A stretch of 64,000 bases of DNA from Malacoraja senta (taxonomy: Eukaryota), in NCBI GenBank assembly GCA_038087875.1, contig CM075989.1, positions 4,402,001-4,466,000 of the forward strand, in the 5' to 3' direction. This document shows, piece by piece, positions 17,476 through 56,650 of the stretch; the stretch's first letter is position 1; each line of letters starts with the position of its first letter. Below the pieces are notes generated by a model that saw nothing but the letters and a program-made list of their open reading frames with translations, searched no databases and was not told where the DNA came from. The position numbers and the translations under genes are program-made.

Positions 17476-17685
17476 CCAGAGCAGTGCTGAACTACGATCT
17501 ATCCTTGATCGGACCTTGCAGGCTTTACCTTGCTCCAAACGTTATTCCCTTATCATGTATCTATACACTGTAAATGGCTCGATTGTAATCATGTATTGTC
17601 TTTCTGCTGTCTGGTGAGCACACAACAAAAGCTTTTCACTGTATCTCGGTACACGTGACATTAAACTAAACTGAAACTAAAACTG
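17476..17685 (+). mobile_element. Retroelement 3' end with Rex1-type tail
   Basis: CCAGAGCAGTGCTGAACTAC..GCTTTTCACTGTATCTCGGTACACGTGACATTAAACTAAAC. Paralogues at 43630 and 50970. Confidence 0.7.
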
Positions 17686-18039
17686 AGTTTGTGACACTAG
17701 AGGTCTTACGGATGTTAGAAGGTAAACATGGAACGTAATCTACCCAGTAACATAATTTGTATGGAGAAACATTATATCCAGTGACACGTCACTATTTAGA
17801 AATTAGATTTCCCTCTTTCTCGCTGCACTAGATATTTTCTATCTGGATCAATCCCCTGTGATCAAGGAAAGCTACTTTGTTCTGAGTTCTTATGGAGAAC
17901 TTTGACCCAAAACATTGACGATTTTCGTTTCCTCCGACAGATGCTCTTGAACCAGCTGGGATCCTCCAGCAGATTGGTGGTTGCTGTGTCTACTCCAATA
18001 TCTACTGCAGTTCTTTGGGTTCTGAGGTGACCGGTGGCT

Positions 18040-18350
18040 TGCACAGTAGCACAGATGGTTGAGCCACTGCCTCACAGCGCCAGAGACCCAGGTTTGATCC
18101 TGTCCTCGGGTGGGTGCTATCTGCGTGGAGTTTGCACGTTTTCCCTGTGATTGCCTGGGTATCCTCCCACATCCCAAAGACTTGCGATTGGGTATCCTCC
18201 CACATCCCAAAGACTTGCAGGTTTGTAGGTTCATTGGAATCTGTAAATTGCCCCTTTTGTGTAGAGAATGCATTTGAAATTGATTTAACATAGTACTAAT
18301 GTGAATAGGGATCAAAAGTGGACGAAGGGCCTGATTCCATGCTTTATGTG
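18040..18350 (+). mobile_element. HE1-type V-SINE, old, with an internal ~33-bp tandem duplication
   Basis: TGGGTATCCTCCCACATCCCAAAGACTTGC occurs twice in ~18156-18218. Confidence 0.8.
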
Positions 18351-18361
18351 TTTGTATGAAT

Positions 18362-18370
<9 letters not shown>

Positions 18371-18441
<71 letters not shown>
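18371..18441. repeat. (TA)n microsatellite, ~35 units
   Basis: Directly visible. Confidence 0.98.
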
Positions 18442-18443
<2 letters not shown>

Positions 18444-18656
18444 TTTTATATTTTTCACCAACTGAGTTTGATCAGGGCCATGATGCTGGGGACATTGGCC
18501 TGGGAGAGGATTCTGATGATGCTTCACTTTGCCTACCAGCAGGAGTGGGGAATTTTATGAAACATTTATTTCATGATATACTGTATCTCCAGCTCTGAAC
18601 AAGGTCCCAACTTGACTCATCGCCCATCCATGTCCACCAGTGATGCTGCCTGTCCC

Positions 18657-18915
18657 ACCCAGTCCACACCGACCAGCGGTCCAATACACTTGCACTGCCC
18701 GACACACTAGGGACAATTTATAATTTTTACCAAAGCCAATTAACCTATAAACCTGTATGTCTTTGGAGTGTGGGAGAAAACCAGAGCACCCGGAGAAAAC
18801 CCACACAGTCACGGAGAGAGCGTACTAACTTAGTATAGATGGCACTCGCAGTCTGGATCGGACCGGGATCTCTGGCACTATGAGGCAACAACTCCACCAC
18901 TGCATCACCATGCCA
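18657..18915 (-). mobile_element. HE1-type V-SINE
   Basis: Reverse complement of the family consensus. Confidence 0.8.
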
Positions 18916-18921
18916 CCACTA

Positions 18922-19148
18922 TTGTTTAATAGCCTGATGGCTGTGGGGAAGAAGCTGCCCCTGAACCTGGATATTACAGTTTTTCAGGCTCCGATACCTC
19001 TTCCCAATGGCAGGAGTGAATAGAGAGTGTGGGTCTCAGATGATACTGGCTGCCTTTTTGAGGCAGCAACTCTCACAGATCCCTTCGATGATGGGGAGGT
19101 CAGTACCTGTTATGGACTGGGCAGTGTTCACCCCTGTTTACAATCTTC
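18922..19148 (-). mobile_element. Rex1-type LINE fragment
   Basis: TGTTTAATAGCCTGATGGCTGTGGGGAAGAAG matches 45541 onward. Confidence 0.8.
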
Positions 19149-19702
19149 AGGGATGGGGAAAATATCAGATGCGCTCAAATGAATTGCGCAAAGTGCCTGT
19201 ACCAATATCCTTCTGGGCCCAATCTCACGTGCGAGGTGTCACCTAACTCTGTGAAATCACTTCTGTTTGTACTGTACAATTGAAAATGGACACTGATGGA
19301 TCCAATTTCAGGCGTATGCATTTAGGAGTTCTATGTACAGCAATTCTTTATGAAAAAATGCCAATCATATCTATGAACACATTATATATTCAAGACCAGA
19401 GAACCTGAATAATATTGTTTTATGTAATACATGCAGAGGTATGCTTCTCAGCAACAGACTATTTTTTCGAAATGCATCATATTACAACAGCCTATTCCAC
19501 AACAGTGTATAGATTGGGTTTCTCTCTTCGAGCAAGATCTCCAGAAGGGTGAGCACGGGGACAATGTTTCCATGTTAAAGTGCTTAATTAACATTATGCA
19601 CTTTAACCTGGGACTGATAAAAAGTATTACACCTGAGATGAAGTGCATTTATTTTCGGCTTAGCCATGGTTTCTCACTACTTCATTAAAGGAAAGAGCAT
19701 CG

Positions 19703-20058
19703 AACGTAGAACATAGCACAGTACAGCTCAGAAACAGGCCCTTCAGCCCACAATGCCCATGCCGAGCATGATGCCAAGTTAAACTAATCTCTGTATAAAC
19801 GTGATCCATATCCTTCCATTCCCTGCATATCCATGTGCCTATCCTATATCCATTAAAACGCCACCATCATGTCTGCCTCCACCACTCCCTTTGGCAGTGC
19901 ATTCCAGGCACCCACCACTCCCTGTAAAAAATCTGCTCCGCACATCACCTTAAAACTTTGCCCCTCTCACCTTAGACCTCTGCCCTCCAGCCTTTGATAT
20001 TTCGACCCTGGGAAAAAGGATCTGACTGATGCCTCTTATCATTTTATAAATCTTTAGG
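19703..20058 (-). mobile_element. CR1 3' end (second subfamily)
   Basis: AACAGGCCCTTCAGCCCACAATG..GCATTCCAGGCACCCACCACTC. Paralogues at 34792, 39932 and 49135. Confidence 0.8.
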
Positions 20059-20067
20059 TCCCTTCAT

Positions 20068-20545
20068 TTAGCTTAGTTTAGTTTAGTTTAGATATTCAGT
20101 GTGGAAACAGGCTCTTTGGCCCACTGAGTCCACGCCGCCTTGCGATCCCCGTCCATTAACACTATCCTACGCACTAGTGATAATTTTACACTAGAGTTTG
20201 TATGTTCTCCCCGTGAGCTGTGTGTGTTTTCTCCGGGTGCTCCTGTTTCTTCCCACACTCCAAAGACATACAGGTTTGTATGTTAATTGGCTTTGTAAAA
20301 TTGTAAATTGTCCCTAGTGTGTGTAGGATAGGGTTAGTGTGCAGGGATCGCTGGTCGGCACGGACACGGTGGGCCGAAGAGCCTGTTTCCACACTGTATC
20401 TCCAAAGACTAGTGTAAAATTGTCACTAGTGAGTAGGATAGTGTTGGTGTGTGGAGATCGCTTGTCGGTGCGGACTCCGTGGGCTGAAGGGCCTGTTTCC
20501 GTGTTGTATCTCCAAACTAAACTAACTAAACTAAACTAAACTAAA
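20068..20545. mobile_element. Rearranged HE1 cluster: two inverted tails with a central SINE body
   Basis: Minus-strand tail 20068-20194, plus-strand body 20195-20407, plus-strand tail 20408-20545. Confidence 0.8.
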
Positions 20546-20594
20546 TAAGAACCCATTGCAGGAGAGTTCCGTGTATTTTGAAAGCAAAAAGCAA

Positions 20595-20990
20595 AGGTTC
20601 AAATGTTTCAAAGGACTGTCGAACCATCCGCAGTCCGGGATATCGAAGTTCCTGTGGCTTAGAGCTCCCGAAGTCGATCTCTTACCAGAGACCGCGAGCC
20701 CCACGATGTTAAGTCCACAGTGTCCCGCGGTTGTAGCTCCCAAAGTCGATCTCCAGCAGAGGCTGCCAGCCCCACAATGTTTGGCCACAGTGCGGACGGG
20801 AGATACGATACTGGAAATAAATCGCAACTCTGTCGAGGTAAGAGATTAAAGAAAAGTTCCCCCCCCCCCCCCCACCACATAAAATAAGAACACTAAAACA
20901 TACTTTTAACACATACTACAAAACAACAAAGAAGGAATGGACGAGACAGACTGTTGGCGAGGCAGCCATTGCTGGCTCCACCTGATGGTC
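20595..20990 (-). mobile_element. GC-rich non-autonomous retroelement, 5' part
   Basis: GCTCCCGAAGTC, CCACGATGTT and AGACAGACTGT are shared with 2986-3570. Confidence 0.65.
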
Positions 20991-21436
20991 GGTGAAGTGG
21001 GAGCAGAACAAGTGTCCCCTCTGTTTCCAGAGTCCCCAGTGTTCCATTCCACAATCTTCTCACTGAAGTCCATCACTCCATGGAGAAGCCCACTGGACCC
21101 TTTGGTTCCATCCCTATCGCCCATAACCCAAGTATCAAAAGAATCAATGAAAGAGCTGGGCCAAGAAAAAAAGGAGTGGTTTTATTCTGGGTAAACCCAG
21201 CGAATGTAACATGGGCAAGAATAGAGCACTTCACAAATTGAAATGGCCGTGAGATAAAGCCTGTCGGGGTGGGGAGGGGGGGGGGGGGGGGCAGCAAGGC
21301 ACTTCATGCCAAAGTGAATGGAGGGTTCTCATAATTTTTCTGTCTCAGAAGAGGCGGATGCAGGCTGAGGGTGCAACTTGACGCGGTGCACCCCACTATT
21401 GTTGGGGACGGAGGGTTAAAGATCATCGCAGCGTGC

Positions 21437-21455
21437 AGTTTGCATTATGCAAACT
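21437..21455. promoter_or_regulatory. Perfect 19-bp inverted repeat of octamer-like half-sites (candidate POU dimer site)
   Basis: AGTTTGCAT-T-ATGCAAACT, in a repeat-free block. Confidence 0.35.
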
Positions 21456-22860
21456 TTTTTTTTCTCTCTCTCCCTGGATGCGACTCAAGGAAGCCTTTAT
21501 TAGACTCCGTACATTGAAATTCCAGCACAGTACCGAAGGCTTTTCCTCTTTTAAAAAAAAAAACAGTTTTGAAAGGCGAAGTGCACTAGCTGTTGTGTGA
21601 GAGTGTGATAGACAGCCGCACAATGGGCCACTGTGACTCTGGCCCTCCTGCACACTACATAATACTATTTGTGCAAAAGGAGGGGGGGGGGAAATCACAG
21701 AACAGGCAGTTGGCTGTGACACACAAAACTGTATTGCGCGCTTTTGGCAGACAAAGCTCCTGAGAAAAAAATATCTGTGTTGTTCGCATTGCAAAAAAAA
21801 TTCTTATTTTGAAAATGTCTCCTGTCTGCAACGGTTGAACAGGGTATCGGAAACAAGGCTACAGTTTTATGAGGGTTTGTTTTACTGTAGATCACAGGAA
21901 AAAGGGAATGAACTTAATGTTGACCTTGAATAAAGGTGGGGGGGGGGGGTAGGCGTAGGGCGGTGGGTGAGTGGGGGGTTAGAATGGGGGCAACAAATAA
22001 CACAACAGCGACAGCTGTACAAAGCTAAGATTGGATAAGTGCACAGCGGCCCAGTTATTAATCTGCCTTGTGTTGTAAAATAGAGGGGAACCAAGACATG
22101 AATGCTTCACAAAGATCTTTCTGGAAATTTCTCTGGCTCCGTAAACAGGCTCTCCGGATGCAGGCTTGCGATAACTATGGAAGGAGACAAATGCAGCATT
22201 GTAGGAGCAGTGCTGACTGCTTTAGGAGGACTGTAGATGGCAGTGTTGGGGAAGCATCACCCTTGGAAGCACCTTCCTTCAAATGTGACCTAAATTAACT
22301 GAGATGCAGCTACAACACAGCACGATTTATTTTTATGGCTTTGATTTCAAACAAAGAAATTGCGCACAACTTCTTGGACATCCGGTCAAATATTGAAGGC
22401 TGCCCACAAAGTTACTGCAAGCTGCAATGTCAATCATCAGACCAGGCGCCTTTTGTTACTATTGATCAACAAAATACAGGAATCGGAACTGATTCTGTTT
22501 CTGTTTGAGAGGAGGACTTATTCTCTATTTATTGCAGAGACTAAGTCATTCAGGAAGCGGCCAGCTTGCAGCCTTCAGCTGGATCCACACACTGTGACTT
22601 TCAGTTGCAGGTCACTGTCTAGCATGGTGGTGACTCCATTTTCCCAACGACACAGCCAGAAGCCCAGACCCAAGTCTTCCTCACTTCATAAGCCAAGCAG
22701 GACTGATCAGCATTGACTACCGTGTGTCCCTGCAGAAAGGGTTAAAGATAATACGCAAAGGATGTCTGGTTATAAGGGACTCTTGTCAGATGCTAAGGAA
22801 CAAGCAATCCCCTGGTCTTTTGATAACTGTATGGCGTGTGGAATATGACAACATTTGAAG

Positions 22861-23061
22861 GTGTAGGAAGGAACTGCAGATGCTGGTTTAAATTGAAGTT
22901 AGACACAAAACGCTGGAGTAACTCAGCAGGTCAGGCAGCATCTCTGGAGAAAAGGAATAGGTGACATTTCGGGAAGGGTTTTGACCTGAAATGTCACCTA
23001 TTCCTTTTCTCCTGATAAGCCGTCTGACCCGCTGAGTTACTCCAGCCTTTTGTGTCTATTG
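22861..23061. mobile_element. Penelope-type hairpin element with a central deletion
   Basis: Inverted arms. TSD TGACAACATTTGAAG (22846-22860) / TGACGAAATTTGAAG (23062-23076). Confidence 0.85.
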
Positions 23062-23464
23062 TGACGAAATTTGAAGCAGGAATAAAATTTTAAAGAGGAT
23101 TTAATTGTGCCATTTGTCCATTAACCGTTGTACCGTCTCAAATACACCGTCTGAATGCAACGCTGCTGTTTATAATGTTCATAACCACTGGATTTACAAT
23201 GTAATTGTGCACAACAGACACATTGCCGTAAAGGGAAAGGATTACTGGGGTGATCAGCTTTATTACTAAGAGGTACCTAGGCCTCTCCAACACTATTTAC
23301 TTTGAAATAAAATCAGAGGCGTCTTTGGCAAAAAGGAAAACTCTTGTATATTTAGTGGAAGTTTTCTCTAAGGGAGGGGGGTGTGCGTGTGTGCTGCACA
23401 CTTATAGTAAGAAAGCAGACCCCAAATATTAGCCTTCCCTTGTTCAGTATATGTGTTCAGTGTT

Positions 23465-23927
23465 CAGGGACAGCTTCATCTCTACAGCCATCAGGCCATT
23501 AAATGCTGCAACCTTCAAATAAGCTCTGAATTACTTGATTTGGGAGCATTGGTTTTCTCTTTTTGCACTGTTATTGTTTGTTTGTTTTTATGTGTGTGTA
23601 TATATGTGTGTATATATATCTGTATATATATGTAGATATGCGCATGTGTGTATGTGTATATACGTGTGTAAATATGCGTGTGTATATACTGTATGTATAT
23701 ATGTGTGTGTATAGACACACTGAACTTTTTCTTTTGTTCTCTTGAACTTTATACTTGAACGAGCCATTAGTCAATCCTTATGATCTCCAAATGTACCATT
23801 CCATGGACCCCATCTTATCTTTTGTCTTTTTGCACTATTATTGTTTGTTTGTTTTTATGTGTGTATATATATATGTGTGTGTGTAGATATGCGTGTGTAT
23901 ATACAGTATATACTGTATATATATATA

Positions 23928-23983
<56 letters not shown>

Positions 23984-24118
23984 CACACACTGAACTTTTT
24001 CTTCTCGTTCATTATATTGTTTAAAGTGTACTATGTTCACATATTCTGTCGTGCTGCTGCAACTAAGAATTTCATTGTTCTCTCTGGGACATCTGACAAT
24101 AAAACACTCTTGAATCTC
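23465..24118 (+). mobile_element. Rex1-type LINE 3' UTR, partly duplicated, with TA/TG microsatellites
   Basis: CAGCCATCAGGCCATTAAA, then two copies of TTTTGCACT..TTATTGTTTGTTTG..CACACTGAACTTTTTCTT, then tail AAGAATTTCATTGT..GACAATAAAACACTCTTGA. Confidence 0.75.
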
Positions 24119-25162
24119 AAGACTCCAGCAAATTTTACTCTCCATCAACCTGTTCGAATGTGCCTGTTTTCCACGCAGAGAAGGCACTGCTGATGGTCTC
24201 AAATGGTAGACGAAGAGGCCCCAAAAAATAGGCACAAGATTAAAAGCTCAGTGTCCTGACTCATGTATTTATTTATACTAAGACTTTATATATGTCACGA
24301 CCATGCATATGAAGATGATTCCATTTTGTATGGAGGCTGAGGAGTGGAGGAGGTTGTGGTAAGGAAACTTCAAAAAAGTGAACAGAAAATTATCTGAAAT
24401 TTTGGTGACACTTCAAATCAGAGCATTTTTTTGTTTGAAGGTTAAAAGGGTCCTGGATGGAGTCCAATTCAAATGTCTTGGTGCTTTTTTAAAATAGCAC
24501 TTTCTGCTCATTCGATATGAGGTGATTGTATAAATATCCTCAAGTTCACAGGTTTTATAATCATTGCATTAAACCAGTATGAAAAACATCACAGTTAGAA
24601 AATAGATGGATATTTGTGGAAAATGCAGTATCAGAATATTTGTTCTTGTATCATGAAACATATGCTTTTTTATTCAACCACAGAAAATGCAATGTCAAAT
24701 TATAAGAGGATAATAACACATGTGTTATATGTGCAATTAATTTTATTTTAAAGGGCATTGGGGGAGTTTGGACAATTCAGAAGCCAGCCTCTGAAAACCT
24801 TCTGAAGTATGATTTTGACTCTGAGATATTGTACAATGCGTAAATGTGAACCAGCAGTCAGATTCCTATCTCTCCCCGTTGATGTGGGGTGAAATAACTC
24901 AGGGAAATATCTAAAACAGGCCGACACTCCATGCAATCATTCGTTTTACACTGTTGGACAAAGTAAATCATTTGTTGTCGAAACAGCCTATGGCTCACGA
25001 TACACAGGCTGAGAGAAGTTAGGCAAGGATGGAACAAGATAAAAAAGATGGGATTGGATGAGGTAATAAATGCCTGTGGATTAGGAAGATGTTGAGGATC
25101 GATATTTTGAGATTGATATTTTGCAAAATTGCAATTTTGTAAATTTTGATATTAGCTAAGCG

Positions 25163-25624
25163 AGGGTGGCACGGTGGCGCAGCGGTAGAGTTATTACCTT
25201 ACAGCGCCAGAGACCCGGGTTCGATCCTGACTATGGGTGCTGTCTGCGCGAAGTTTTTACCCGGCGTGGGGGCCTGGCAGAGGGGGGAGGGGGTGGGCGG
25301 GATAACAAAGGAAGACCCGGCGTGAGATACTTTGCATACCGTGGGTGAGCAAAACAAAGCATTTCACTGTGACTCGTCACATGTGATAATAAAGTATTTA
25401 CTCACTCATTCTCCCCGTCACCTGTGTGAGTTTTCTCCGGGACATCCGGTTTCCTCCCACACTCCATAGACGTACAAGTTTATAGGTTAATTGGCTTCGG
25501 TATAATTGTAAATTGTCCCGAGTGTGCAGAATAGTGTTAGTGTATGGGGATCGCTGGTCGGCGCAGAATCGGTGGTGAAAATGGCCTGTTTCCACGCTGT
25601 ATCTCTGAACTAAACTAAACTAAA
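25163..25624 (+). mobile_element. HE1-type V-SINE with an unrelated insertion at ~25255-25409
   Basis: Head to ~25254. The V-domain resumes at TTCTCCCCGTCACC. The insert ends with the Rex1-type tail GCATTTCACTGTG..TGTGATAATAAAG. Confidence 0.85.
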
Positions 25625-26156
25625 AGAATGTTAAAATGAACAAACCATGTAGGAAGAGGAATGTTGAGTGGATACAAAAAACAAAATCCATAAAGGCACT
25701 CACTGATAATTAGTAAGTGAAATGTTAATTATGGAGTGGAAGGGGCAGTTAAAGAGGGAATCAGCGGTCAATAATATGTTATTACCCGTCTCTCTGAGAG
25801 TATTAATTGAACAGTTGCATAGGTTCAAGGACGTGATCTGATAAAGGGAAGTTTGGAAAGGCAGCTCTCGTGTGTCAAGGGGTGAAGTGCAGACCTCTTA
25901 TGATTTTTAACCCCACCGTCATTTCACTCAACTCATGAACAAGCAAAGGCGACGCTGGGGAAAGTCCACGGAAATAAAAATAAAATCCCATTTTAGTTTG
26001 TAATTTCCAATCAAATTACGAATCAAAATTATAGAAAAGGCATTAAAAACAGACCATCAGCCAGTGTCATTTCCAATTGTAAAACTTAATTGAGGTACCG
26101 TGTAAATTAGTCACCATCACTAAGAAGCTTTAGAAGTTTTCGCCACAGTTGTACAT

Positions 26157-26452
26157 AGGCACGATGGCGCAGCATTAGAGTTGCTGCCTTACAGCACCAA
26201 AGACCCAAACTCGATCCTGACTATGGGTACTGTTTGTACAGAGTTTGCACATTCTCCCTGTGACCACATGGGTTTTCTCCGGGTGCTCCGGCTTCCTCCC
26301 ATAGTCCTACAACGTACAGGTTTGTAGGTTAATTGGCTTCTGTAAATCCTCTCTCAAGTGTAGGAACTAATGTTCAGGTTGATTGTTGATTGGCGTTGAC
26401 TCGGTGGGCTGAAGGGCCTGTTTCTATGCTATATCTCCAAAATGAAATCTAA
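26157..26452 (+). mobile_element. HE1-type V-SINE
   Basis: Head, V-domain and tail are all present. Confidence 0.85.
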
Positions 26453-27027
26453 ACATTATGAGTTGGTATTAAGAAATCATTCTGAAGTGGTTGTCATTTG
26501 AGTATTAGTGTGAAAATTACTACTGATAGTTCACGCCATATCTGTGTACATTCAGTAAATGTTTTTTATCTATATGACTTTATAATATTTATACCTACTC
26601 TCTCTCTTTCTTTCTACAGTCCTCAATTTCCTTCACATATTTTGTACGCCATTTGTCTTCATAGTTTCACTTGCCAATATTTTCGATGTCACAAACTGCG
26701 CCCTGTTCTCAAATGGGAATCTAACCCATTGCTAAAAAAAAGCTGCCACCAAGATTCTTTGCTTCGTCTTTTCAGGTCAAATATCTCATCCTAAACCATA
26801 CATCCCTTTGACTGTCACCGCAGCACCCCTTCCCCCAAACCCACACTGCAAAAGTAAATGTTAAAAAATACAATAATTGTATAATTCTAGATGCCGAATG
26901 TTTTATTTTTGTACAATTGCTTTAATAAAAATTTTTTTTAAAAAGACTTCACCCATACACTTGTTCCATCCATTCTTCCAATATGTCTGGGTAAAATACA
27001 AGTAAAAGTTCCAAACGTTTGTTATAA

Positions 27028-27170
27028 TGTCATACAGCATGGAAACAGGCCCTTCAGCCCAAAATTCCCATGCCGACCCTGGTTACCTATGCACACTAGC
27101 CCCACCTGCCCGCATTTGGCCCACATCCCTCTAAACCTCTCCTACCCATGTACCAAATCTCTTAAATGTT
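27028..27170 (-). mobile_element. CR1 3' tail fragment
   Basis: GTCATACAGCATGGAAACAGGCCCTTCAGCCCAA. Confidence 0.7.
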
Positions 27171-27578
27171 CAGCAATATTTTGTCTCTCATTTTGGATCT
27201 TCCTCTTTTCACTCCCCTGTGTATAAAGTATTAATGTTCTCTTGATACTTGATACTTGAACGATCCTTATGATCCAAATGTACCATTCCATGGACCCCAC
27301 CTTATCTTTACAGCCTCAAATGCTCAGACTCAAGAGCACCCTGAATGAACAAACCATTTTTCGCTTTAGATATTGGCATTCTGTAGCCCACTTCCAACTA
27401 TGGCAGTGTTATGAGAATATTGGAAAGTAGGCCCTGCAGTGGGCTTTGCAATCCCTCGGTCCTGTACGATCATGGCTGATCTGCCCCAAGCTTCATCTCC
27501 TCTTCTGGGAGTTCTCCAGAGCCCTCAATTCCGCAATTTATTTCAGATATCTTCCTATCAGTCGTTTCAAAATGACTG

Positions 27579-27909
27579 TGTAGGCAGGAACTCCAGATGC
27601 TGGTTGATACCGAACTTAGACACATAATGTCGTGGGAACTCAGCGGATCAGACATCTCTGGAGAATAGGTGACAATTTGGGTCAGAACCCTTCTTCAGAC
27701 CGAAGATAGGCACAAAGTGCTGGAGTAACTCGGCGGCTCAGGCAGCAACTCTGGAGAAAAGCAAAAAGTTTCTGGTCGGAACCCTTCTTCAGACGCTGGT
27801 CGGAACCCTTCTTCAGGTCTGAAGAAGGGTCTCGACCCAAAACATCACCTATTGCTTTACTCCAGAGTTGCTACCTGACCCGCCGAGTTACTCCAGCATT
27901 TTGTGTCTA
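27579..27909. mobile_element. Penelope-type element with tandem and inverted arms
   Basis: Repeated ACCCTTCTTCAG units followed by an inverted arm. TSD-like TTTCAAAATGACTG / TTTCAAAAAGAGTG. Confidence 0.8.
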
Positions 27910-28305
27910 TTTCAAAAAGAGTGATTGACTCAAAATCAAATTAAGCAGGAAATAGTTAAAACTGGCATCAAGCACGATGCTGGGCAACAGGAAGTATTAT
28001 GCTGCACAGGAAAGATTCTGCTCAAATGGCTTAAAATGTCACTGTATTTGCTAAAGGATTTGCTAAAATTTGGCATAAAAGTGCAAAAATCATCCAATCA
28101 ATTTGATTACAACATGAAAAATCACGTCCCCTTCAATCTTGCGACAGAGGAACTTTATAAAATTTTCACTGACCTGACATCCCCCTTATGATAAAATTAA
28201 GTATATTCTCTGGACTTCAACAAGATCATAACTTACTGTGGATGTGTGAAGCCATTCAGTCCACCAGAAAGCACCCACATATCTTGATGCCAGTATATTA
28301 TACAT

Positions 28306-28637
28306 GGGGTGGCACAGTAGCACAGCAGGTAGAGCTGCTGCCTCACAGCGCCAAAGACCCAGGATTAATCCTGACCTCGGGTGCTGTCTGTGTGGAGTTT
28401 GCACCTTCTCCCTGTGACCCCGTGGGTTTCCTCCAGGTGCTTTCCAGTTTCCCCCCACGTCCCAAAGATGTGCGTATTTGTAGGTTAATTGGCCTCTGTA
28501 AATTGCCCCTTGTGTGTAAGGAGTGGATGGGAAAGTGGGACAACATAGAACCAGTGTGAACGGGCGATCAATGATCGGATTGGACTGTGGGCCAAAGGGC
28601 CTGCTCCCATGCTGTGTCTTTGAACTAAATTAAACTA
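28306..28637 (+). mobile_element. HE1-type V-SINE, older subfamily
   Basis: Head, V-domain and tail are all present. Confidence 0.85.
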
Positions 28638-29077
28638 TATTGAACATTCATTCACTGTGTCACTTACAACATGCAATCAAGGCATTGATTTGAGTTCTAA
28701 AATAATCTTTTACTCTGTTGCATCGATGTGCCCTACAGACTAACATATCATAGGTCTCCTTTCACTTCTGAAAGAATTATAAATTAGTTTAGATTCATTT
28801 AAAAATACTAACAATATTTGATAACAAGTACCTTCATTCAATTTATTTTAATTTGGAGTCTAGCCTAGGTGGAAGGAGACATTTTAACAGTGGAGTTAAT
28901 ACAGAGCCTAACCTCAGATAAGAAGGATGACAAATTAGGCCAGGATACACATATACAATTAAAACACGACTCTTTGTTTTTTTTTCTGTTCTGTCTCATT
29001 TTCTATATAATGGTTGAATTTAATATTATCATTTATATTTAATGCAAATGTACAGCAATTTAAGAGGCAGAAGTGGA

Positions 29078-29391
29078 GGGCAGTCACGGTGGTGCAGCGG
29101 TAGAGTTGCTGCCTTACAGCGAATGCAGCGCCGGAGACCCGGGTTCGATCCTGACTACGGGTGCTGTCTGTATGGAGTTTGTACGTTCTCCCCGTGACCT
29201 GCGTGGGTTTTCTCCGAGATCTTCGGTTTCCTCCCACAGGCGTACAGGTATGTAGGTTAATTGGCTTGGTAAATGTAAAAATTGTCCCCAGTGGGTATAG
29301 GATAGTGTAAATGTGCGGGGATCGCTGGTCGGCGCGGACCCAGTGGGCCTGAAGGGCCTGCTTCCACGCTGTATCTCTAAACTAAACTAAA
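29078..29391 (+). mobile_element. HE1-type V-SINE, subfamily with a GAATGCAGC insertion in the head
   Basis: TTACAGCGAATGCAGCGCCGGAGACCCGGG. An equivalent insertion is at 42428. Confidence 0.9.
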
Positions 29392-29569
29392 GTAGGTTGT
29401 AATGTTGCCATAATGAGGCATCACAGCGATACAGCTGGCAGAGAGGCATAATTACAACGTGTGGAGTTTGCATTGGCTTTTTCCATTCTAAATTTTGGGC
29501 TTAGTTTGGAAAGTTTGGAAAGGGAGCTATGATTTTGTGTCTTTTATTCACATGGTCATTTTTAAACAA

Positions 29570-30090
29570 TGCCCGGCTTTCATCCCCCCCCCCCCCCCCC
29601 CCGTCCCCTATTCACCTCACTTTTCTCCCCACTCCCCCACTCACTCCCAATCCTTTTTTTATTCCCCCCCTCCTTCCCAGTACCCCATCCGGACACACCG
29701 ATTTCTCCTATCGCTCCCTCCCCCTCCACCTGTATTCCTTCCTCTGGCTTCACAATTGGCAACTCTTCCATCCTTTTGTCTCGCACCTTCTGTGAATTCA
29801 TCTCTGACCTTTGCCTAATCCAATGCCTATCGACCCCCCCCCCCCTCTGTCCCACCACCCCACAATCAGCCTACCAAAGAGTCCCGACCCGAAAAATCAA
29901 CTATCCAAGGACTAGGTGATGTTTCGAGTTGGAACCCTTCTTCAGACTCGGGCTGAAACCTTTCTTCAGGTGTGAAGATGGGTTCAACACATCACCTTTT
30001 CCTTTTCTCCGGAGAAGCTGTCTGACCTATTGAGTTACTCCAGCGATTTGTGGCTATTTCTATAAACTAGCTTCTGCAGTTCCTTCTTTC
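29570..30090 (+). mobile_element. Penelope-type 3' region plus hairpin
   Basis: C-rich body ending in a degenerate core (GAGTCCCGACCCGAAAA), followed by family arms. Confidence 0.55.
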
Positions 30091-30404
30091 CACCCATAGC
30101 ATGCAGCTTCTGATAGCCTTCTGCGTATTGCCTCTGTACTAGTATTAGGCAAATTTATTCTATCACACCCGACAGGATCAATTTATTTCGATTAATTTCC
30201 AATCCTAAAATCTCGTGTCTTCATTTCCTTAGAGAAGACTACAATCAAACACACTAAAACAAACTAGAAACAAATGGGATGTCTCCAAGCTAAGTATAAA
30301 TATTAGAAAATTCACCATGATAAAAATGATTCCTATTTTCTATCTCCTATGCTTCTATGCTTTTCTAATCTTTCTATTGCAGATACAAAATAAACGTTAA
30401 GATG

Positions 30405-30499
30405 TCTGAAGAAGGGTTTCGGCCCGAAACGTTGCCTATTTCCTTCGCTCCATTAGATGCTGCCTCACCCGCTGAGTTTCTCCAGCATTTTTGTCTACC
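30405..30499 (+). mobile_element. 95-bp Penelope-type mini-element with hammerhead-like core
   Basis: Starts TCTGAAGAAGGGTTTCGGCCCGAAACGTT. TSD AACGTTAAGATG / AATGTTAAGATG. Confidence 0.9.
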
Positions 30500-32455
30500 A
30501 ATGTTAAGATGGTGTGTGTTTCAAATTCCTTCAAAAGCACACAACTTTACACAATGACTTCAGATTCTAATTGACCTGTCAAGTAAACAAACTCAGGATC
30601 ATTATCTAAAGCCAGACCTTTAGTGACCCCACCATTCACTTTAACAATGCACAGCAATCATGTCTTCTCGCCTTTAAAGGATACATATCTACATCACATT
30701 TCTACTTGGTGCAGAGATCATGTCCTTATAATACTGCCAATTTGCCATTAACATTGCCATGGGAAATTCAATAGAATTGAAGGGTTTTATACTTGACAAC
30801 CCCCTAACGCAAGCACCATGACTGTTCTGGGGAAGTATTATAAATGGAAAATATACCGAGAATGCAAAAATATATATGTCTTTCTATGTTGTGTAGAACA
30901 GCCCACAGACCTTGTTTTATTCTTTGCCGATTCTAAGAGCGATTCTTTGCCACCACAGTTTAGCAACGATATTGCCGTGCAGGGCGGGACAAATGTGAGC
31001 TCCTCAGCTTCCTCACCATTTTGACTGAATATAAGTGGCTACGAGGCAGAAGAGAGAGTAGCTGTATGCAAGGAAGAAAGAGAGGTAGAAGAAATACGGG
31101 AGTACTTAATTACAATTTTATATATACATGGTATTTGATAAATATTAATTTTAGGTTATTAATAAACATTAAAAATCAAAGACATAAAATTGAATACATT
31201 TCAATCGGTCTCCCAATGATCCCCCCAAAAATTATATGGCTCTAATCCTGTGCGTTGGACAATTATTTACTGAGAACCCACGCGGAAATTTGTTTTATTA
31301 ATGTTTGTAAAGACTGTCACTGCGAAACTGAATTATAATTGATTCCTTGTGCTTAAATCGTGAATATTATGAGTAAAACTATTGTGTGTGGCATGAGGAA
31401 AGTTTAAGGGGTGAATCTGTGGAAGGTAGCAGTTAAATTGCCACTTTGGGACTGGAACAAGAATTTGGGAACAGATTTTAAGATTTTGCAATTTGCTGGG
31501 ATAAGCACAACAGGCCAGGGGATGGGGCCGTAGTGAAGCTGAGATTCCACTGAAAAAACAATATGCCACTGCTCGGAAAGAAATCTATTCCTTGCCAGCT
31601 CAAAGTCGCTTGGTATGCTTTGCTCATTTGCGAACTTCTATAACTTGTATTGCAGCCAAACTTCAGATTCTAACCACTTGACAAATTCTACATACCCCAA
31701 TATTATTTGGACAATCTAAAACACTTTAATACCTCATGTAGGTTTGAAGATTTATCTTTGCAATAAACTTGTAGATTTTGAGCCACAACCCATCATTTAT
31801 ATTTTAAATTACAATGTTATTGGCAATATTGCGATGTTTAAATAAAGTAATTTCTTTTGGGAAGCTGGGGAAATGAAATTTGTGGAAATACTTTAAGTTT
31901 CAAGTAATATTTCAGAAATACCAATTTTTTGTGGAACCCGGTTCTATAAGGAAAATCAAGGACTAGAAATAGCTGTTAGCTGGTGATGGAGTGAAATCTG
32001 ATTTCACAATTGAGAATTAAAGGAAAGGGGGGGAAATGAAAAGTGCAGGAGGAAAGACAAAATCAATTTGGAAATGTTGATCAGATGAAGCAAGTTTAGG
32101 ATTGTTTAAATTTTATGATTACAGGAAAGTTTGGAGAAGTGAGGTGCTGTGTAATATTAAGCAGCAGAGAAAATAATAACATTGATCATAAATGATTCCA
32201 TGAATCTTGCTGCTTTATTATTTATAAGACCTTAGTCCACAATCAGGATTTGTTTTAAAACACAATTTCTGCCCACTTAGAACAGATAGGATTAATCAGA
32301 ATAACAATTCGCTAAATCCCCTTTCCTGTTTAATTGCTTAACCCAATTAAGTCTTGGATTTTTTTTAATACAATATAATACTGATTTTAATCAGGATCAC
32401 AAAAAGATAGTGAGATTTTGATATCACAGAAGTAGAAAGAATGTATTGTAATATG

Positions 32456-40325: not shown

Positions 40326-40410
40326 AAGGAAAGGCACAGAAGGCTGCAGTAACACAGCGGGTCAGGCAGCATCCCTGGAGAACATTGATAGGTGATGTTT
40401 CAGAGAGTAA

Positions 40411-40666
40411 TGGGCCTGTTCCACTTTCACGACCTAATTCACGACCTCTGCCGAGTTTGCCCTTGACATACTCGCAGCATGGTCGTCACGAGGTCGTAGG
40501 AGGTTGTAGGAGGTCATAGGAGGTCGTAGGTAGGTCGTAGCAGGCCGTGATGCTAGTCGTAGGTACTCGTGGCATCATGTAGGTCGGGGCATTTTTTCTA
40601 GCCTGATGAAAAATGTCCACGAGTAAAAAAGGTCGTGAATTAGGTCGTGAAAGTGGGACGGGCCCT
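40411..40666. mobile_element. PIF/Harbinger-like MITE
   Basis: ~37-bp TIRs TGGGCCTGTTCCACTTTCACGACCTAATTCACGACCT / AGGTCGTGAATTAGGTCGTGAAAGTGGGACGGGCCCT. Flanks are TAA and TTA. Internal AGGTCGT repeats. Confidence 0.85.
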
Positions 40667-40670
40667 TTAG

Positions 40671-44190: not shown

Positions 44191-44419
44191 GTATAGATAC
44201 ATGATAAGGGAATAACGTTTAAGGCAAGGTAAAGCCAGTAAAGTCTGATCAAAGATAGTTCGAGGGGCACCAATGAGGTAGCTAGTAGTTCAGGGCTACT
44301 TTCTAGTCGTGGTAGGATGGTTCTGTTGCCTGATAACAGATGGAAATGAACTGGGGAAAGAGCGCTGGGTCTTTGAGATCTGGGGGAAAAATAAATTGGA
44401 ATAGGAAACAGTACCATTA

Positions 44420-45209
44420 AGGGCCTGTCCCACTGACGCAACCTTTCAGCGACTGTCTTCGACCTTCAAGCTCGAAGGCACTCGCCTGGAAAACCTCGAG
44501 CTGGATCGACCGTCAGCGATGAAACTGCGAGCTGGATCGACCGACCGCACACACACACACAAACACATCGCAAAGGTGGGGGCCAGGGAAAGCGGGGGAG
44601 CCCTGTCTGAAATTCACACCCGCGATGAAGAGGAAGGTTAAAAAAAAGCTGCACAGTGTATGGTAAGTCCTTTAGAGAGTGCGGAGTGGGGTAGAGAAGG
44701 GGAAAGAGGGGGAGAGAAAGGGAGAGAAGAGGAGAGAAGGGGAGAGAAGGGGAGAGAAGGGGGGAAGAAGGGGGGGAGAAGGAGTGGAGACACTTTTAAG
44801 AAGTCAGACAACTTATAATAAAGTTTAGCGGGCATTTTACATTGCCGGTCAGTTTTCCTTGGTCCTGAAAACTCCAATGAGCCAATTAAAATGCCCGGTC
44901 AGCGAAGGAGATTGCCTACGGCTGCCCTGGACTGCCTGTAACTACATAGCGACCCCACTCCACTGCACTACGAGTTCAAAAGAACCATGCCGACCAATTT
45001 TTACTCGTGGAAAAATTTTCAACGTGCTGAAACATTTTCCTCGTCCAAACTGTGGCCGCGAGTATGCGGGAACTTCCCCCGAGCATGAAGTAGAGTTCCA
45101 GTGACCTCATAGGACCTCCTAGGACCACGTGTCGACCATGCTGCGAGTTTGAGTCGAGGGCAAACTCTTCTAAAGTCGCAGATTAGGTCGCCACAGTGGG
45201 ACAGCCCCT
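44420..45209. mobile_element. PIF/Harbinger-like non-autonomous element
   Basis: TIRs AGGGCCTGTCCCACTG / CAGTGGGACAGCCCCT. TTA TSD at 44417-44419 and 45210-45212. Confidence 0.9.
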
Positions 45210-45341
45210 TTAGTGTTTATAGCACATTGATTAAACATAGAAAAGTAACACTTGGGGGTGATGTGTATGAACACTGGTGATCCCAACATTAATACATAGT
45301 GGGTTGCTATCCAGCCCAACACATGAAAGGAAATGGCACAG

Positions 45342-47355
45342 AGTCAAGAGACAAGAGTGTTTTATTGTCATATGTCCCGGACGGGACAATGAAATTCTTA
45401 CTTGCTGCAGCACAACAGAATATGTGAATATGTAAACATTGTATATAAACGGGAAAAAAAGAAAAAGTTCAATAAATATCAAATATAGTGCAAATAATAA
45501 TATAGTATTTTGCAGTTCAGATCTCAGAGCTTATTCGTTGTGTTTAATAGCCTGATGGCTGTGGAGAAGAAGGTGTTCCTGAACCTGGACGTTACAGTCT
45601 TCAGGCTCCTGTACCTTCTTCCTGATGGCAATGGAGAGATGAGTGTGTGGCCAGGATGGTGTGGGTCCTTGATGATTTTGGCTGCCTTTTTGAGGCAGCG
45701 ACTACGATAGAACCCTTCGACAGTGATGGAATGGGCAGTGGTCACAACTTTTTGTAGTCTTTTTCGCTCCTGGACGTTCAAGTTGCCGAACCAGGCCACG
45801 ATGCAACCAGTCAGAATGCTCTCTTCCGTGCACCTGTAGAAGTTGAGGAGAATCCTCTTCAACATGCCGAATCTTCGTAATCTTCTCAGGAAGTAGAGTT
45901 GCTGATGTGCCTTCTTTACAATTACATTGGTGTGCTGGGTCCAGGAAAGATCTTCTGATATATGCACGCCCAGGAATTTGAAGTTATTGACCCTCTCCAC
46001 CATCGTCCCGTTGATATAAACAGGATTGTGGGTCCTCGTCCTTCCCCTACCAAAGTCCACAATCAGTTCCTTGGTCTTATTGATGTTGAGAGCCAGGTTG
46101 TTGTGCTGCCACCATTTGGTCAGTCGGTCGATCTCACTTCTATACTCTGACTCGTCCCCATCTGTGATTCGTTCAACCAAAGGTGTCGTCGGCGACCTTG
46201 ATGATGGAGTTCGCACTATGACCAGCAATGCAGTCATGGGTATAGAGTGAGTAAAGCAGGGGGCTGAGCATGCAGCCTTGAGGTGCTCCCGTACTGATTG
46301 TTGCTGAGGATGAAGTGGTTCCTCCAATTCGAACAGACTGTGGACTGTGGATGAGGAAGTCGAGGATCCAATTGCAGAGGGATGTGCAGAGGCCCAGAGC
46401 TTGGTAACCAGCTTGGAAGGGATGATGGTATTAAATGCCGAGTTGTACTCTATAAACAACAGCCTGACGTAGGTGTTTTTATTGTCCAAGTGGTCCAATG
46501 CGGAGTGGAGAGCCAGAGAAATTGCATCCTCCATTGACCTGTTGTGATGGTATGCGATCCGTAGTTGGTCGAGGTTCTTGTCGAGGTAGGAGTTGATGTG
46601 CACCATAACCAACCTCTCAAAGCACTTCATCACCACAGACGTTAGTGCCACTGGTCGATAGTAATTGAGGCACGTCACCGTCTTCTTGGGCCCTCTTAAA
46701 GCAGGTGGGGACCTCAGACCTCAGAAGTGAGAGGTTGAAAATGTCTGCAAAATCTCCCGCCAGTTGGTCTTCACAGGTCTTGAGAACTCGACCGGGTATA
46801 CCATCAGGTCCAAGCGCTTTCCGAGGGTTCACCCCCCTGAAGGATCTTCTGACGTCGGCCTCTGTGACTGTGACTGGGTGAATAGGGGCTCGGGAAGGCA
46901 GATCAATGTTCTCCCTATCGAACTGTGCGTAGAACGCATTGAGCTCGTCAGGGAGTGATGCTTCGCTGTCGTTTGAGCCGCCTCCTGATTTCGCCTTGTA
47001 GGAGGTGATGGCATTCAAGCCCTGCCACAGTTGCCAAAAATCCGTCATTCTCCAGCTTAGAGCAGAAGTCCCTTTTGGCCTTTTTGATGGCCTTACCAAG
47101 GTCGTATCTGGACTTCTTGTAGACCTCTGCATCGCCAGACCTGAATGCCCAGGATCTGGTCCTCAGAAGAATGCAGATCTCATGGTTGATCCAAGGCTTC
47201 TGGTTAGGAAACACTCGGAAGGTTTTTGTTGGAACGCAGTCCCCCACACATTTCCTTATGAAGTCCATAACGACTGTGGCGTATTCGTTCAGGTCCATTG
47301 CCGAGTCCCTGAACATTGCCCAGTCTACAGACTCCAAGCAGTCCTGGATGAGATA
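45342..47355 (-). mobile_element. Rex1/Babar-type LINE, 5'-truncated, with a frameshifted reverse transcriptase
   Basis: [55 protein letters not shown] and SGRRYRSL are spread over several frames. The 3' tail is intact. Confidence 0.95.
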
Positions 47356-47700: not shown

Positions 47701-48319
47701 TTTCAACTTTATTTCAACTCAACTCAATGCACTGCAAAGGCACAGAAGAGAAGACAATTCCTGAGGCAGATTAGCCAAAATCACACTAAATGGTGGGAGA
47801 GGCTTGAAGGGCCAAGTAGCCCATGGCTCATTTTTCCTTCTTTTCTACCATTTCATCCACAGGGAGCATAACTCCATAATTTCTTGTTGTAAAGCTCCAT
47901 TCAATATGATCAAGGCTTATCATCTCTAGGTCTTATCTCCTCTTCTGTGCCAGTTCCCCATAACCTTCAGCAACCATCAATCTGCTGAAAGGAAATCAGT
48001 GGATAAAGCAGCGTAAAGCCCCTGTCCCGCTTAGGAAACCTGAACGGAAACCTCTGGTGACCTTGCGCCCCACCCACGGTTTCCATGAGGTTCCCGGAGG
48101 TTTTGGTCACTCTCCCTAATGGTCGAAAGTGGTTTCCGCGTGGTCGAGGCTTCTTCTATGTTCCTGCGATTATTTCAACAAAATCAAAACCGGCCTCGAC
48201 TAAAAATAGGTTGCCGTTTGGTCGAAGCCAGTGGAGTGGGGTCGCTATTTACTTACAGGCAGTCGAAGGCAATCTCCTTCGCTGACCGGCCATTTTGATT
48301 GGCTCATTGGAGTTTTCAG

Positions 48320-48341
48320 CAAAGATCCTATAGGATCTTTG
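48320..48341. mobile_element. 22-bp palindromic insertion with 8-bp TSD (candidate transposon footprint)
   Basis: GTTTTCAG-CAAAGATCCTATAGGATCTTTG-GTTTTCAG. Confidence 0.8.
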
Positions 48342-48670
48342 GTTTTCAGGACCTAGAAGATCCGCCGGAAGGTAAAATGCCCGCTAACTTTATTAAACTT
48401 CTTAAAACTGTCTCCACTCCTTCTCCCCCACCCCCCCTTCTCTCCCCTTCTCTCCCCCTTCTCTCCCCCTTCTCTCCCCCTTCTCTCCCCTTCACTCTCC
48501 CCTTCTCTCCCCTTCTCTCCCCATCTCCCCCTCCCTCCCGCGCTCTCTAAAGAACTTACCATGCTCTGTGGCAGCCGTTTACCTTCCTCTTCATCGCGCA
48601 GACAGCGCTCCTCCGCTGTCCCTGGCCCCCACCTTCGCGATGTGTTTGTGTGTGTGTGTGCGGTCGGTAG

Positions 48671-48692
48671 CAAAGATTCTGTAGGATCTTTG
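48671..48692. mobile_element. Second 22-bp palindromic insertion with 8-bp TSD
   Basis: GTCGGTAG-CAAAGATTCTGTAGGATCTTTG-GTCAGTAG. Confidence 0.8.
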
Positions 48693-49134
48693 GTCAGTAG
48701 ATGCAGCTCACGCTTCGGTCGAGGCTTTCCAGGCGAGTGACCAAAACTTCTGGCGACTCATGGAAACCTTGGATGGGGCGCAAGGTCAACAGAGGTTTCC
48801 GTTCAGGTTTCCTAAGTGGGACAGGGGCATTAGGACTAGATTCCACCACCTGCTCTCTCTTGTGTCTCCCCACAATCTTCAATTCCCTGAATCTCAAACT
48901 TTGTCCATTATAATCACCTCCAATGATCTAGCCTCCATAAGCCTGGCGAATTCCAGAGACCTATGTTCCAGGGTCGGACAGTGAGAGTACCGCGATTTTG
49001 GCTGCCAACTATCCGATAAGTGGTTAAACTGAGTTGACCTCTCCACCCAACCCCACCAACGCTATCACCATTTGCACCTTCAGAAGAATGTGGATGGTTA
49101 CATGACATTATCTAAAGTCTGCAGGAAAAAGTCA

Positions 49135-53850: not shown

Positions 53851-54947
53851 TCTGCCATTGATGTTCAAATATCTGCCATTGATGTTCCACTGTCATCCCT
53901 GCTAGGGTCCCTTTCCAGTCAACTTTGGCCAGCTCCTCCCTCATGCCTCCATAGTCCCCTTTGTTCAACTGCAATACTGACACTTCCGATTTTACCTTCT
54001 CCCTCTCAAATTGCAGATTAAAACTTATTATATTATGGTCACTACCTCCTAATGGTTCCTTTACCTTGAGTTCCCTTATCAAATCCGGTTCATTACACAA
54101 CACTAAATTCAGAATTGCCTTCTCCCTGGTAGGCTCTAGTACAAGCTGCTCTAAGAATCCATCTCAGAGGCACTCCACAAACTCCCTTTCTTGGGGTCCT
54201 GTACCAGCCTGATTTTCCCAGTCTACCTGCATGTTGAAATCTCCCATAACCACCATAGCATTACCTTTGTTACATGCCAATTTTAACTCCTGATGCAACT
54301 TGCACCCTATCTCCAAACTACTGTTTGGGGGCCCGTAGATATCTCCCATGAGTGTCTTTTTACCCTTACCATTTCTCAGTTCTATCCACAATGACTCTAC
54401 ATCTTCTGATTCGATGTCATCCCTCTCAGGGGACTGAATTTCATTCTTTACCAACAGAGCCACCGCACCTCCTCCGCCTACCTGTCTGTCTTTTCAATAG
54501 GACGTATAGCCCTGAATATTCAGTTCCCAGCTCTGATCCTCTTGCAGCCATGCACCTCGGTACAAGTGACAATAAACTAAACTAAACTAAGTTAAACTAG
54601 CAGGAATGAAGGGCTGAATGGCCTACTGCCTTTTTTTCTTTGGTAAATTGGAATAAGGCAGGATAACAACAGCACTAGAGCACATATTTCTCCACATTCC
54701 TATTTAATGGCGTTAAGCTTAAAGTGTGTTGAATGCAATAAAGTTACTTTTCTTAAAATCTAGACAATCGCCTATCTGGATAGAAGTGGCTCAGTGGAAC
54801 AATTGAATGAAGGGATGGGCTATTTGTTCTTCCACAGGACATTGGTGTTGCTGGCCACATCTCTATTCATGTCCCATCCCAAAGTACCCCAGAACTGAAT
54901 GACTTGCTCAGCCATTTTGGGGAGTAGTTAAAGAGTCAATCACATCA

Positions 54948-55052: not shown

Positions 55053-55338
55053 TTAATGGGTGCATCGTCACATATAGGCCAAACCTTGTAAGGACAAACA
55101 GTTATATTTCCTGAAGGACTTGAGTAAAGTTAATGCGTTTTACAAACAAATATGGATTGTGATCACATTTTCATGTCATGTTCTTTTATTCATGCTTGAC
55201 TTAAATTTACATGTAAATTTCCCATCTGTTATAAAAGTTGCAATTGTGACTGCAGTTATAAGGTCATAAGGTCATACAGGAGGTGTTGGGAGCAGAATTG
55301 GGCCATTCGGCCCATCAGGTCTAATCCGCCATTCAATC

Positions 55339-56650
55339 ATGTTATATCTGGACTTCCAGAAGGCTTTCGACCAGGTCCCACATAAGAGATTAGTATACAA
55401 ACTTAAAGCACACGGTATTGGGGGTTCAGTATTGATGTGGATAGAGAACTGGCTGGCAAACAGGAAGCAAAGAGTAGGAGTAAACGGGTCCTTTTCACAA
55501 TGGCAGGCAGTGACTAGTGGGGTACCGCAAGGCTCAGTGCTGGGACCCCAGTTATTTACGATATATATTAATGATTTGGACGAGGGAATTGAATGCAACA
55601 TCTCCAAGTTTGCGGATGACACGAAGCTGGGGGGCAGTGTTAGCTGTGGGGAGGATGCTCGGAGGCTGCAAGGTGACTTGGATAGGCTGGGTGAGTGGGC
55701 AAATGCATGGCAGATGCAGTATAATGTGGATAAATGTGAGGTTATCCACTTTGGTGGCAAAAACAGGAAAGTAGACTATTATCTGAATGGTGGCCGATTA
55801 GGAAAAGGGTAGATGCAACGAGACCTGGGTGTCATGGTACACCAGTCATTAAAAGTAGGCAGGTACACAAAAATGCTGGAGAAACTCAGCGGGTGCAGCA
55901 GCATCTATGGAGCGAAGGAAATAGGCAACGTTTCGGGCCGAAACCCTTCTTCAGACTCAAAAGTAGGCATGCAGGTGCTGCAGGAAGTGAAGAAGGCGAA
56001 TGGTATGTTAGCATTCATAGCAAAAGGATTTGAGTATAGGAGCAGGGAGGTTCTACTGCAGTTGTACAGGGTCTTGGTGAGACCACACCTGGAGTATTGC
56101 GTACAGTTTTGGTCTCCTAATCTGAGGAAAGACATTCTTGCCATAGAGGGAGTACAGAGAAGGCTCACCAGACTGATTCCTGGGATGGCAGAACTTTCAT
56201 ATGAAGAAAGACTGGATAGACTCAGCTTGTACTCGCTAGAATTTAGAAGATTGAGGGGGAATCTTATAGAAATGTACAAAATTCTTAAGGGGGACAGGCT
56301 AGATGCAGGAAGATTGTTCCCGATGGTGGGAAGTCCAGAACAAGGGGTCACAGTTTAAGGATAAGGGGGAAATCTTTTAGGACCGAGATGAGGAAAACAT
56401 TTTTCACACAGAGAGTGGTGAATCTGTGGAATTCTCTGCCACAGAAGGTAGCTGAGGCCAGTTCATAGGCTATATTTAAGAGGGAGTTAGATGTGGCCCT
56501 TGTGGCTAAAGGGATCAGGGGGTATGGAGAGAAAGCAGGTACAGGATACTGAGTTGGATGATCAGCCATGATCATATTGAATGGCGGTGCAGGCTCGAAG
56601 GGCCGAATGGCCTACTCCTGCACCTATTTTCTATGTTTCTATGTTTCTAT
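55339..56650 (+). mobile_element. CR1 (HER1-like) LINE, RT to 3' end, with a premature stop
   Basis: YLDFQKAFDQVPH..SGVPQGSVLGP..SKFADDTKL and RPHLEYCVQFWSP. TAG stop at 55810-55812. (TTTCTATG)n tail. Inserted into an older antisense CR1 tail. Confidence 0.95.
55862..55958 (-). mobile_element. 97-bp Penelope-type mini-element nested in CR1
   Basis: Perfect 11-bp TSD AAAAGTAGGCA at 55851-55861 and 55959-55969. Confidence 0.9.

Follow-up and report, generated by a model that had tools for sequence, protein, structure and literature searches.

Two 22-bp palindromes in an amplified MITE of Malacoraja senta as probable excision scars of a P-superfamily transposon family

The excision mechanism on which the present analysis draws is already established in the laboratory. 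According to the part of PMC7776569 that covers cleavage, the two strand cuts of Drosophila P transposase lie 17 bp apart, one at the element end and one within the element, and the tables on repair of P excisions (PMC2895639, Tables 1-3) describe truncated tails that are joined by microhomology, bluntly or with templated insertion between the target duplications, a junction spectrum that is due to the 17-nt staggered cut. No feature of P transposition is odder than this long staggered cut, which in the literature cited here has been mapped for the Drosophila enzyme alone; P elements are described in the same part of PMC7776569 as hopping locally and preferring promoter-like DNA. Duplications are 8 bp long for P and 7 bp for 1360 and Galileo in the corresponding part of PMC3698922, while the target preferences given in the cited part of PMC3276498 are GTCCGGAC for P, GTTNAAC for 1360 and GTNCGNAC for hobo, a hAT element. 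General features of P and hAT elements are covered in the relevant passages of PMC1562414 and PMC3942097. In the open-access literature we found no report of the end sequence described below or of natural P-type scars as a repeat class, no report of the P-like family considered here and its amplification inside a MITE, and no donor-scar data for 1360 or Galileo.

The window analysed here is a stretch of 64,000 nucleotides from Malacoraja senta, and both 22-bp palindromes that it contains, together with their 8-bp duplications, are real, with coordinates and duplications as given in the original prediction. Palindrome 1, CAAAGATCCTATAGGATCTTTG at 48320-48341, is perfect over 22 bp and lies between exact copies of GTTTTCAG (48312-48319 and 48342-48349), with two CCAAT boxes (48298-48310) adjoining the site. 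Palindrome 2 (48671-48692) is palindrome 1 with 2 substitutions and lies between GTCGGTAG and GTCAGTAG, which differ by a single mismatch located at a CpG. Both sit inside an 820-bp carrier MITE, and they are referred to as scars 1 and 2 after the reading proposed below. The features are as follows.

48014..48832, no strand: carrier MITE, about 820 bp, with 90-100-bp terminal inverted repeats, TAA/TTA ends and high depth throughout
44419..45210, minus strand: paralogous MITE from a different subfamily that lacks both palindromes, shared core 74% identical
48312..48319, plus strand: left 8-bp target duplication of site 1, single copy in the paralogous MITE
48320..48341, no strand: scar 1, 22-bp perfect palindrome, which under the scar model would be two 14-nt element ends with a 6-nt overlap
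48342..48349, plus strand: right 8-bp target duplication of site 1, exact copy
48663..48670, plus strand: left 8-bp target duplication of site 2, from the sequence and the hairpin-insert scan
48671..48692, no strand: scar 2, 22-bp near-palindrome, letters compared with contigs of four runs
48693..48700, plus strand: right target duplication of site 2, one mismatch at the CpG

A search of the window with at most 3 mismatches returned palindromes 1 and 2 as the sole matches in 64 kb, and 0 of 100 shuffles yielded 2 matches. The chance of a perfect 22-bp palindrome combined with an exact 8-bp direct repeat was 3e-7 per window by a composition estimate, and a generic scan of the window for hairpin inserts of 14-60 bp with 8-bp duplications also recovered these two palindromes only. 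The local hopping and promoter preference of P elements, together with the CCAAT boxes by site 1, are possible reasons why a single 820-bp lineage holds both scars and the remaining 63 kb hold none. The idea that the palindromes form the two ends of one 373-bp composite was ruled out, the outer 8-mers differing at 4 positions. Elsewhere in the window, a 40-bp near-perfect palindrome at 2892-2931 is without an 8-bp duplication and resembles the hairpin of the paralogous MITE near 44996-45017.

The carrier is presumably a MITE of the Harbinger/PIF type, to judge from the features of its ends. MITE flanks in the window read TTA/TTA at 44419-45210, TAA/TAA at 3651-4131 and TAA/TTA at the carrier, and two shorter MITEs (3651-4131 and 40408-40669) have GGGCCTGTCCCAC-type ends and TWA flanks like those of the carrier. 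The rest of the window is repeat-rich, with many copies of a 300-bp SINE-like repeat, hairpin repeats of 100-300 bp, and fragmentary LINEs, with domains for reverse transcriptase and endonuclease, at 45527-46720 (minus strand), 54167-54493 (minus strand) and 55270-55809 (plus strand). Both insertion sites had been claimed to be empty in the paralogous MITE, and the claim stood in full for site 1, which is cleanly empty and differs from the paralog by an exact 30-bp indel. Site 2 is probably empty as well, judging from the alignment: taking away the insert and one duplication raised the alignment score against the paralog from 90 to 100, and where site 2 has GTCGGTAG the paralog reads GTCGGTCG as its target copy. 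The insert was aligned entirely to a gap in 1 of 5 gap settings, and the alignment at site 2 is not unique because the paralogous MITE holds, precisely there, its own 27-nt direct repeat with 31-nt spacing (44491-44548).

The abundance of the palindromes was assessed in public runs, the contigs of 4 of the 21 runs being aligned to 47900-48950 at 80% likeness (X15 and X16 from organism E, X17 from organism F and X1 from organism A); X15 possibly comes from the source of the window itself. In these four runs from three organisms, depth was 643-2058 times that of the unique flanks at the centre of scar 1 and 1383-5460 times inside scar 2, ratios that are not copy numbers and of which the order of magnitude alone is meaningful. 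As a share of the neighbouring MITE body, palindrome depth was about 7-10% at site 1 and 13-29% at site 2. Among the pieces listed, scar 2 was bridged, with at least 31 letters on each side and fewer than 10 gap letters, by X1 records 4, 6 and 7, X15 record 12 and X16 record 24, all of which except X15 record 12 show 16-23 letter differences from the window; three further listed pieces over the scar 2 region miss 16-24 letters at unlisted positions. Scar 2 belonged to master copies of the MITE, which amplified in several related organisms, and the same is probable of scar 1, its inheritance resting mainly on depth because a single listed piece bridges it (X17 record 30, with 19 letters missing at unlisted positions). 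The check on whether other copies of the MITE carry the same scars had a positive outcome, for scar 2 by pieces that span it with MITE flanks and for scar 1 mainly by depth.

The letters within the palindromes add to this picture. Position 48330 in scar 1 is A in 60-92% of the depth, while at the matching position 48681 in scar 2 G is the majority letter (62-90% of the depth), so that most scar 1 depth is not spill-over from scar 2. The T at 48678 in scar 2 is private to the window copy, C making up over 99% of the depth there in each of the four runs. Loose ends at 48319, which represent the empty form of site 1, are seen in 32 contigs of X15 and 16 contigs of X16 (rows listed). In none of the four runs did any share of the aligned contigs continue into unlike sequence, and no full element was found at either scar site among the contig rows listed for these runs. 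Depths of hundreds- to thousands-fold in three organisms, together with a MITE-flanked scar 2, thus indicate that the palindromes are mostly inherited from master copies. The local hopping that had been suggested for this locus is accordingly not needed, with a depth of about 640-5500 times single-copy and scar 2 in paralogous contigs; a local hop inside the MITE master lineage is possible.

The palindromes are probably end-joined excision scars of a family of DNA transposons, whose membership of the P superfamily we infer from the features of the sequence. An element with ends CAAAGATCCTA(T/C)AG... would have inserted and duplicated 8 bp, the duplications being directly visible and the element a reconstruction. 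Transposase would then have excised it with a long stagger, so as to leave 3' single-stranded element-end tails on both flanks, with a deduced length of at least 14 nt here as compared to 17 nt in Drosophila P. The tails could have annealed via the near-self-complementary CTA(T/C)AG and, after trimming and ligation, have yielded target, 22 bp and target; given one end with CTATAG and one with CTACAG, a single annealed mismatch could have resolved to either of the observed centres. The scars would have arisen in master copies of an unrelated MITE lineage, the amplification of which would have carried them to many loci and into at least three related organisms, as observed for scar 2 and likely for scar 1, and they are probably inert passengers of the MITE. 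Both window sites have duplications of 8 bp, within the 7 or 8 bp of the P superfamily, and the palindromes have termini that start with CA, as in that superfamily, CA not being exclusive to P. Inserts observed in the organism of the window have one length only (22 bp).

Relatives with the same ends were found in metagenome DNA by a scan for two 11-base ends at most 30 bases apart, that is, for inserts of 22-52 bp. The pattern matched at no fewer than 118 metagenome loci and at 77 prokaryote and 11 viral loci, and duplications were counted on 117 of the metagenome matches, one contig-edge locus being left out. Among the matches listed, a duplication of 7 or 8 bp, with 1 mismatch or none, flanks 25 of these 117, compared to none of the 77 prokaryote matches, which served as control, none of the 11 viral matches, and a rate of 0.35% at random positions; the duplication is exact at 16 of the 25 (eight of 8 bp and eight of 7 bp), and 21 of the 25 have ORF-poor surroundings. 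Pfam analysis of 90 of the 130 frames near metagenome loci revealed DUF4517, a eukaryotic phosphomannomutase (PMM), a weak PHD and a weak RVT_1, of which the first two, lying in neighbouring frames, point to eukaryotes as hosts; the hosts of the duplication-bearing loci are probably animals. At the other 92 of the 117 matches listed, L070 included, no duplication with at most 1 mismatch is present, and many of these are prokaryote-like chance hairpins, with some in old repeats. Merging of loci with shared flanks left 19 independent relatives of 28-49 bp among the matches listed, 9 with duplications of 8 bp and 10 with duplications of 7 bp.

The metagenome relatives show the anatomy of P footprints, in that both ends are kept, truncated and joined by microhomology or insertion between intact duplications, and for the two window copies the same anatomy would be a consistent decomposition. 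One family with 7-bp duplications has nested end pieces that overlap by 1-2 nt (L101, 20+20 nt; L030, 20+13 nt; L045, 15+20 nt; L026, 10+19 nt), and L090 consists of 20+20 nt with a 4-nt overlap, the 20-nt ceiling of this decomposition being preset by the script. A separate comparison of unlinked loci revealed that the ends common to them mostly stop at 19-21 nt. Longer inserts (e.g., L041 and L014) have short copies of the end sequence in their middle, nearly every junction differs among relatives, and insert lengths vary; L082 carries the pair of ends CTATAG and CTACAG. At unrelated sites, L061 and L121 are near-perfect hairpins of 49 bp with 24-nt arms and different exact 8-bp duplications, and they differ from each other by one symmetric base pair; a deeper cut, a true mini-element and a favoured repair product are the candidate explanations for this pair. 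The window scars need at most 14 nt of each end, compared to the 19-21 nt shared by relatives and the 24-nt arms of L061 and L121, and retained ends above 17 nt would imply a deeper cut or that some are products of aborted gap repair. Many metagenome inserts are 45-52 bp long, near the 52-bp limit of the pattern, and a continuum with longer deleted elements is possible.

At least two dispersed repeat families in metagenome DNA of eukaryote type each hold, at a fixed position, an insert of 28-42 bp with a decaying duplication, as in the MITE of the window. The first comprises L020, L022, L035, L036, L060, L075, L104, L115, L119, L120 and L128, and the second L013, L016, L040, L044, L076, L081 and L116. 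The window scars and the metagenome families appear to be akin by their shared ends, 11 nt at each end having been fixed by the search pattern. L070, which alone among the matches listed reproduces the 22-mer exactly, lacks a duplication and may derive by shortening from a repeat-borne scar of 30 bp, its flank scoring 38 against a shuffle maximum of 29 in comparison with 1 of 23 loci and 31 against 28 in comparison with another. At three further loci (L058:1425-1524, L125:290-343 and L117:296-343), CAAAGATCCT ends enclose TTAGGG-type telomeric repeats within longer inverted arms (16-36 nt), without target duplication.

The target sites were compared with the preferences of the known superfamilies. 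Scored against GTTNAAC, the 1360 motif, the ten 7-bp targets among the matches listed agree at 34 of 60 positions, compared to a null mean of 15.9 (34 reached in 0 of 10000 draws), and the 8-bp targets listed show a weak fit to GTNNNNAC (15 of 36, p=0.017). No enrichment is seen for the A/T that flanks the extended P motif, and it is missing at both window sites, the targets of which match the hAT/hobo-type target NTNNNNAN. The GTnnnnAG pattern, which had been put forward as a P signal, is therefore not diagnostic, since hobo has a similar 8-bp core and the pattern alone cannot separate P from hAT. The original prediction of P-type excision footprints gained independent support from the varying lengths of the relatives, their truncated ends with microhomology joins, the 7- and 8-bp duplications and the 1360-like 7-bp targets, while the parent element and its transposase were not found.

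The 64-kb window yielded no long element that combined CAAAGA...TCTTTG ends with a convincing duplication, and longer elements with these termini were likewise not found at the metagenome loci searched or in the viral scans. The window pair 15765-30949 was rejected as a long element, its ends being unrelated beyond the seed. In 57 chosen metagenome loci, no second element end was found beyond 4 one-mismatch matches, and the viral scans for end motifs yielded 4, 0 and 1 matches; each of these lay in ORF-dense DNA, lacked a partner end and was set aside as chance. Pfam analysis of all 86 window frames of at least 95 aa detected LINE-type domains only and no transposase domain; a transposase was likewise not detected in the 90 frames analysed of the 130 at the metagenome loci. 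On a contig of a giant-virus bin, the frame L211:3809-4381 resembles, by eye, a light-harvesting chlorophyll-binding protein.

The palindromes are unlikely to descend from a hAT element, or another element with 8-bp duplications, that lost its interior without transposase, through slippage or recombination across paired terminal repeats or through aborted gap repair. Such an origin would suit the fit of both window sites to the hobo targets, the extension of matches up to the 52-bp limit, and the motif CAAAG, which fits the hAT end consensus YARNG as well as the P consensus CANRG. However, 10 of the 19 independent relatives among the matches listed have 1360-like 7-bp duplications, and the ends common to unlinked loci stop mostly where a fixed cut depth predicts. 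The part of PMC3942097 on hAT gives 8-bp duplications and terminal repeats of 10-25 bp, which would also agree with the sites, but in the portions of the literature cited here hAT elements are not reported to make duplications of 7 bp. In addition, the cited parts of PMC5499845 and PMC3878927 place the hairpins of hAT excision on the flank, so that such excision would leave no element ends, whereas element-like ends lie here between intact duplications.

It is quite unlikely that the 22-mer is an ultra-short non-autonomous element that is moved whole by a transposase and makes a fresh 8-bp duplication each time, and improbable that the 22-bp palindrome and the 49-bp twins are complete elements of two overlapping ends moved by a P-type transposase. 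An element of only two overlapping ends would, to our knowledge, be far shorter than any known non-autonomous element. Mobility would account for the presence of two distinct insertions, equal in length, in a single 820-bp MITE lineage and of no others in the 64 kb, for the identical 22-mer in L070 and for the twin hairpins of L061 and L121 with their different exact duplications, and free copies could contribute to the high palindrome depth. Against this, the relatives vary in length with nearly all junctions distinct, L070 is without duplication and may descend from a longer scar, no share of the contigs in the four runs leads into unlike sequence, and the pieces with scar 2 have MITE flanks. 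Moreover, the binding sites of P transposase lie inward of the terminal repeats (cited part of PMC7776569), and 22 bp leave no room for them.

A role of the hairpins as functional parts of the carrier lineage, as a binding site or a cruciform aiding amplification and whatever their origin, is very improbable: two in one lineage are unexpected at a genomic density below one per 64 kb, and the two metagenome repeat families also hold such an insert at a fixed position, but most MITE copies are without the palindromes given the depth shares at sites 1 and 2, amplified carriers dominate any pattern search by ascertainment, and the local hopping of P and its preference for promoter-like DNA (cited part of PMC7776569) would suit scar 1 beside its two CCAAT boxes.

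If the palindromes are P-type excision scars, they record in a natural animal genome a process known from the laboratory. From natural genomes it would then be possible to read how deep other families cut (at least 14 nt here, and about 19-21 nt or more in the relatives), and the conservation of the long staggered cut beyond flies would become testable from sequence. MITE subfamilies that bear the scars can also be dated and subdivided by them, and, for annotators, tiny palindromes with duplications need not be mobile.

Compared with the described systems, hobo and other hAT elements (cited parts of PMC3276498 and PMC3942097) are similar in their 8-bp duplication and GT..A target preference, and differ in that the hairpin forms on flanking DNA and both ends are not left between intact duplications (cited part of PMC5499845). 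The zebrafish Pdre2/zfTHAP9 system is, like the family proposed here, P-like and from a vertebrate, with a CA start, an 8-bp duplication and excision in cells; unlike the window scars, it has a 13-bp terminal repeat, CATACCTGTCAAC, and flanking deletions after excision (cited part of bioRxiv 10.1101/2024.03.22.586318). The 7-bp duplication of 1360/Hoppel and Galileo (cited parts of PMC3276498 and PMC3698922) recurs in 10 of the 19 independent relatives from the matches listed, where it matches GTTNAAC, whereas the window sites have 8 bp. In junction structure, the excision products of Drosophila P in the reports cited above share the intact 8-bp duplications, the head-to-head truncated ends, the near-palindromic product of 20-50 bp and the CA-start ends. 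The end sequence differs from that of Drosophila P, the relatives keep 19-21 nt (at least 24 nt in L061 and L121) as compared to its 17-nt tail, and the scars described here are natural, old and amplified inside another mobile element.
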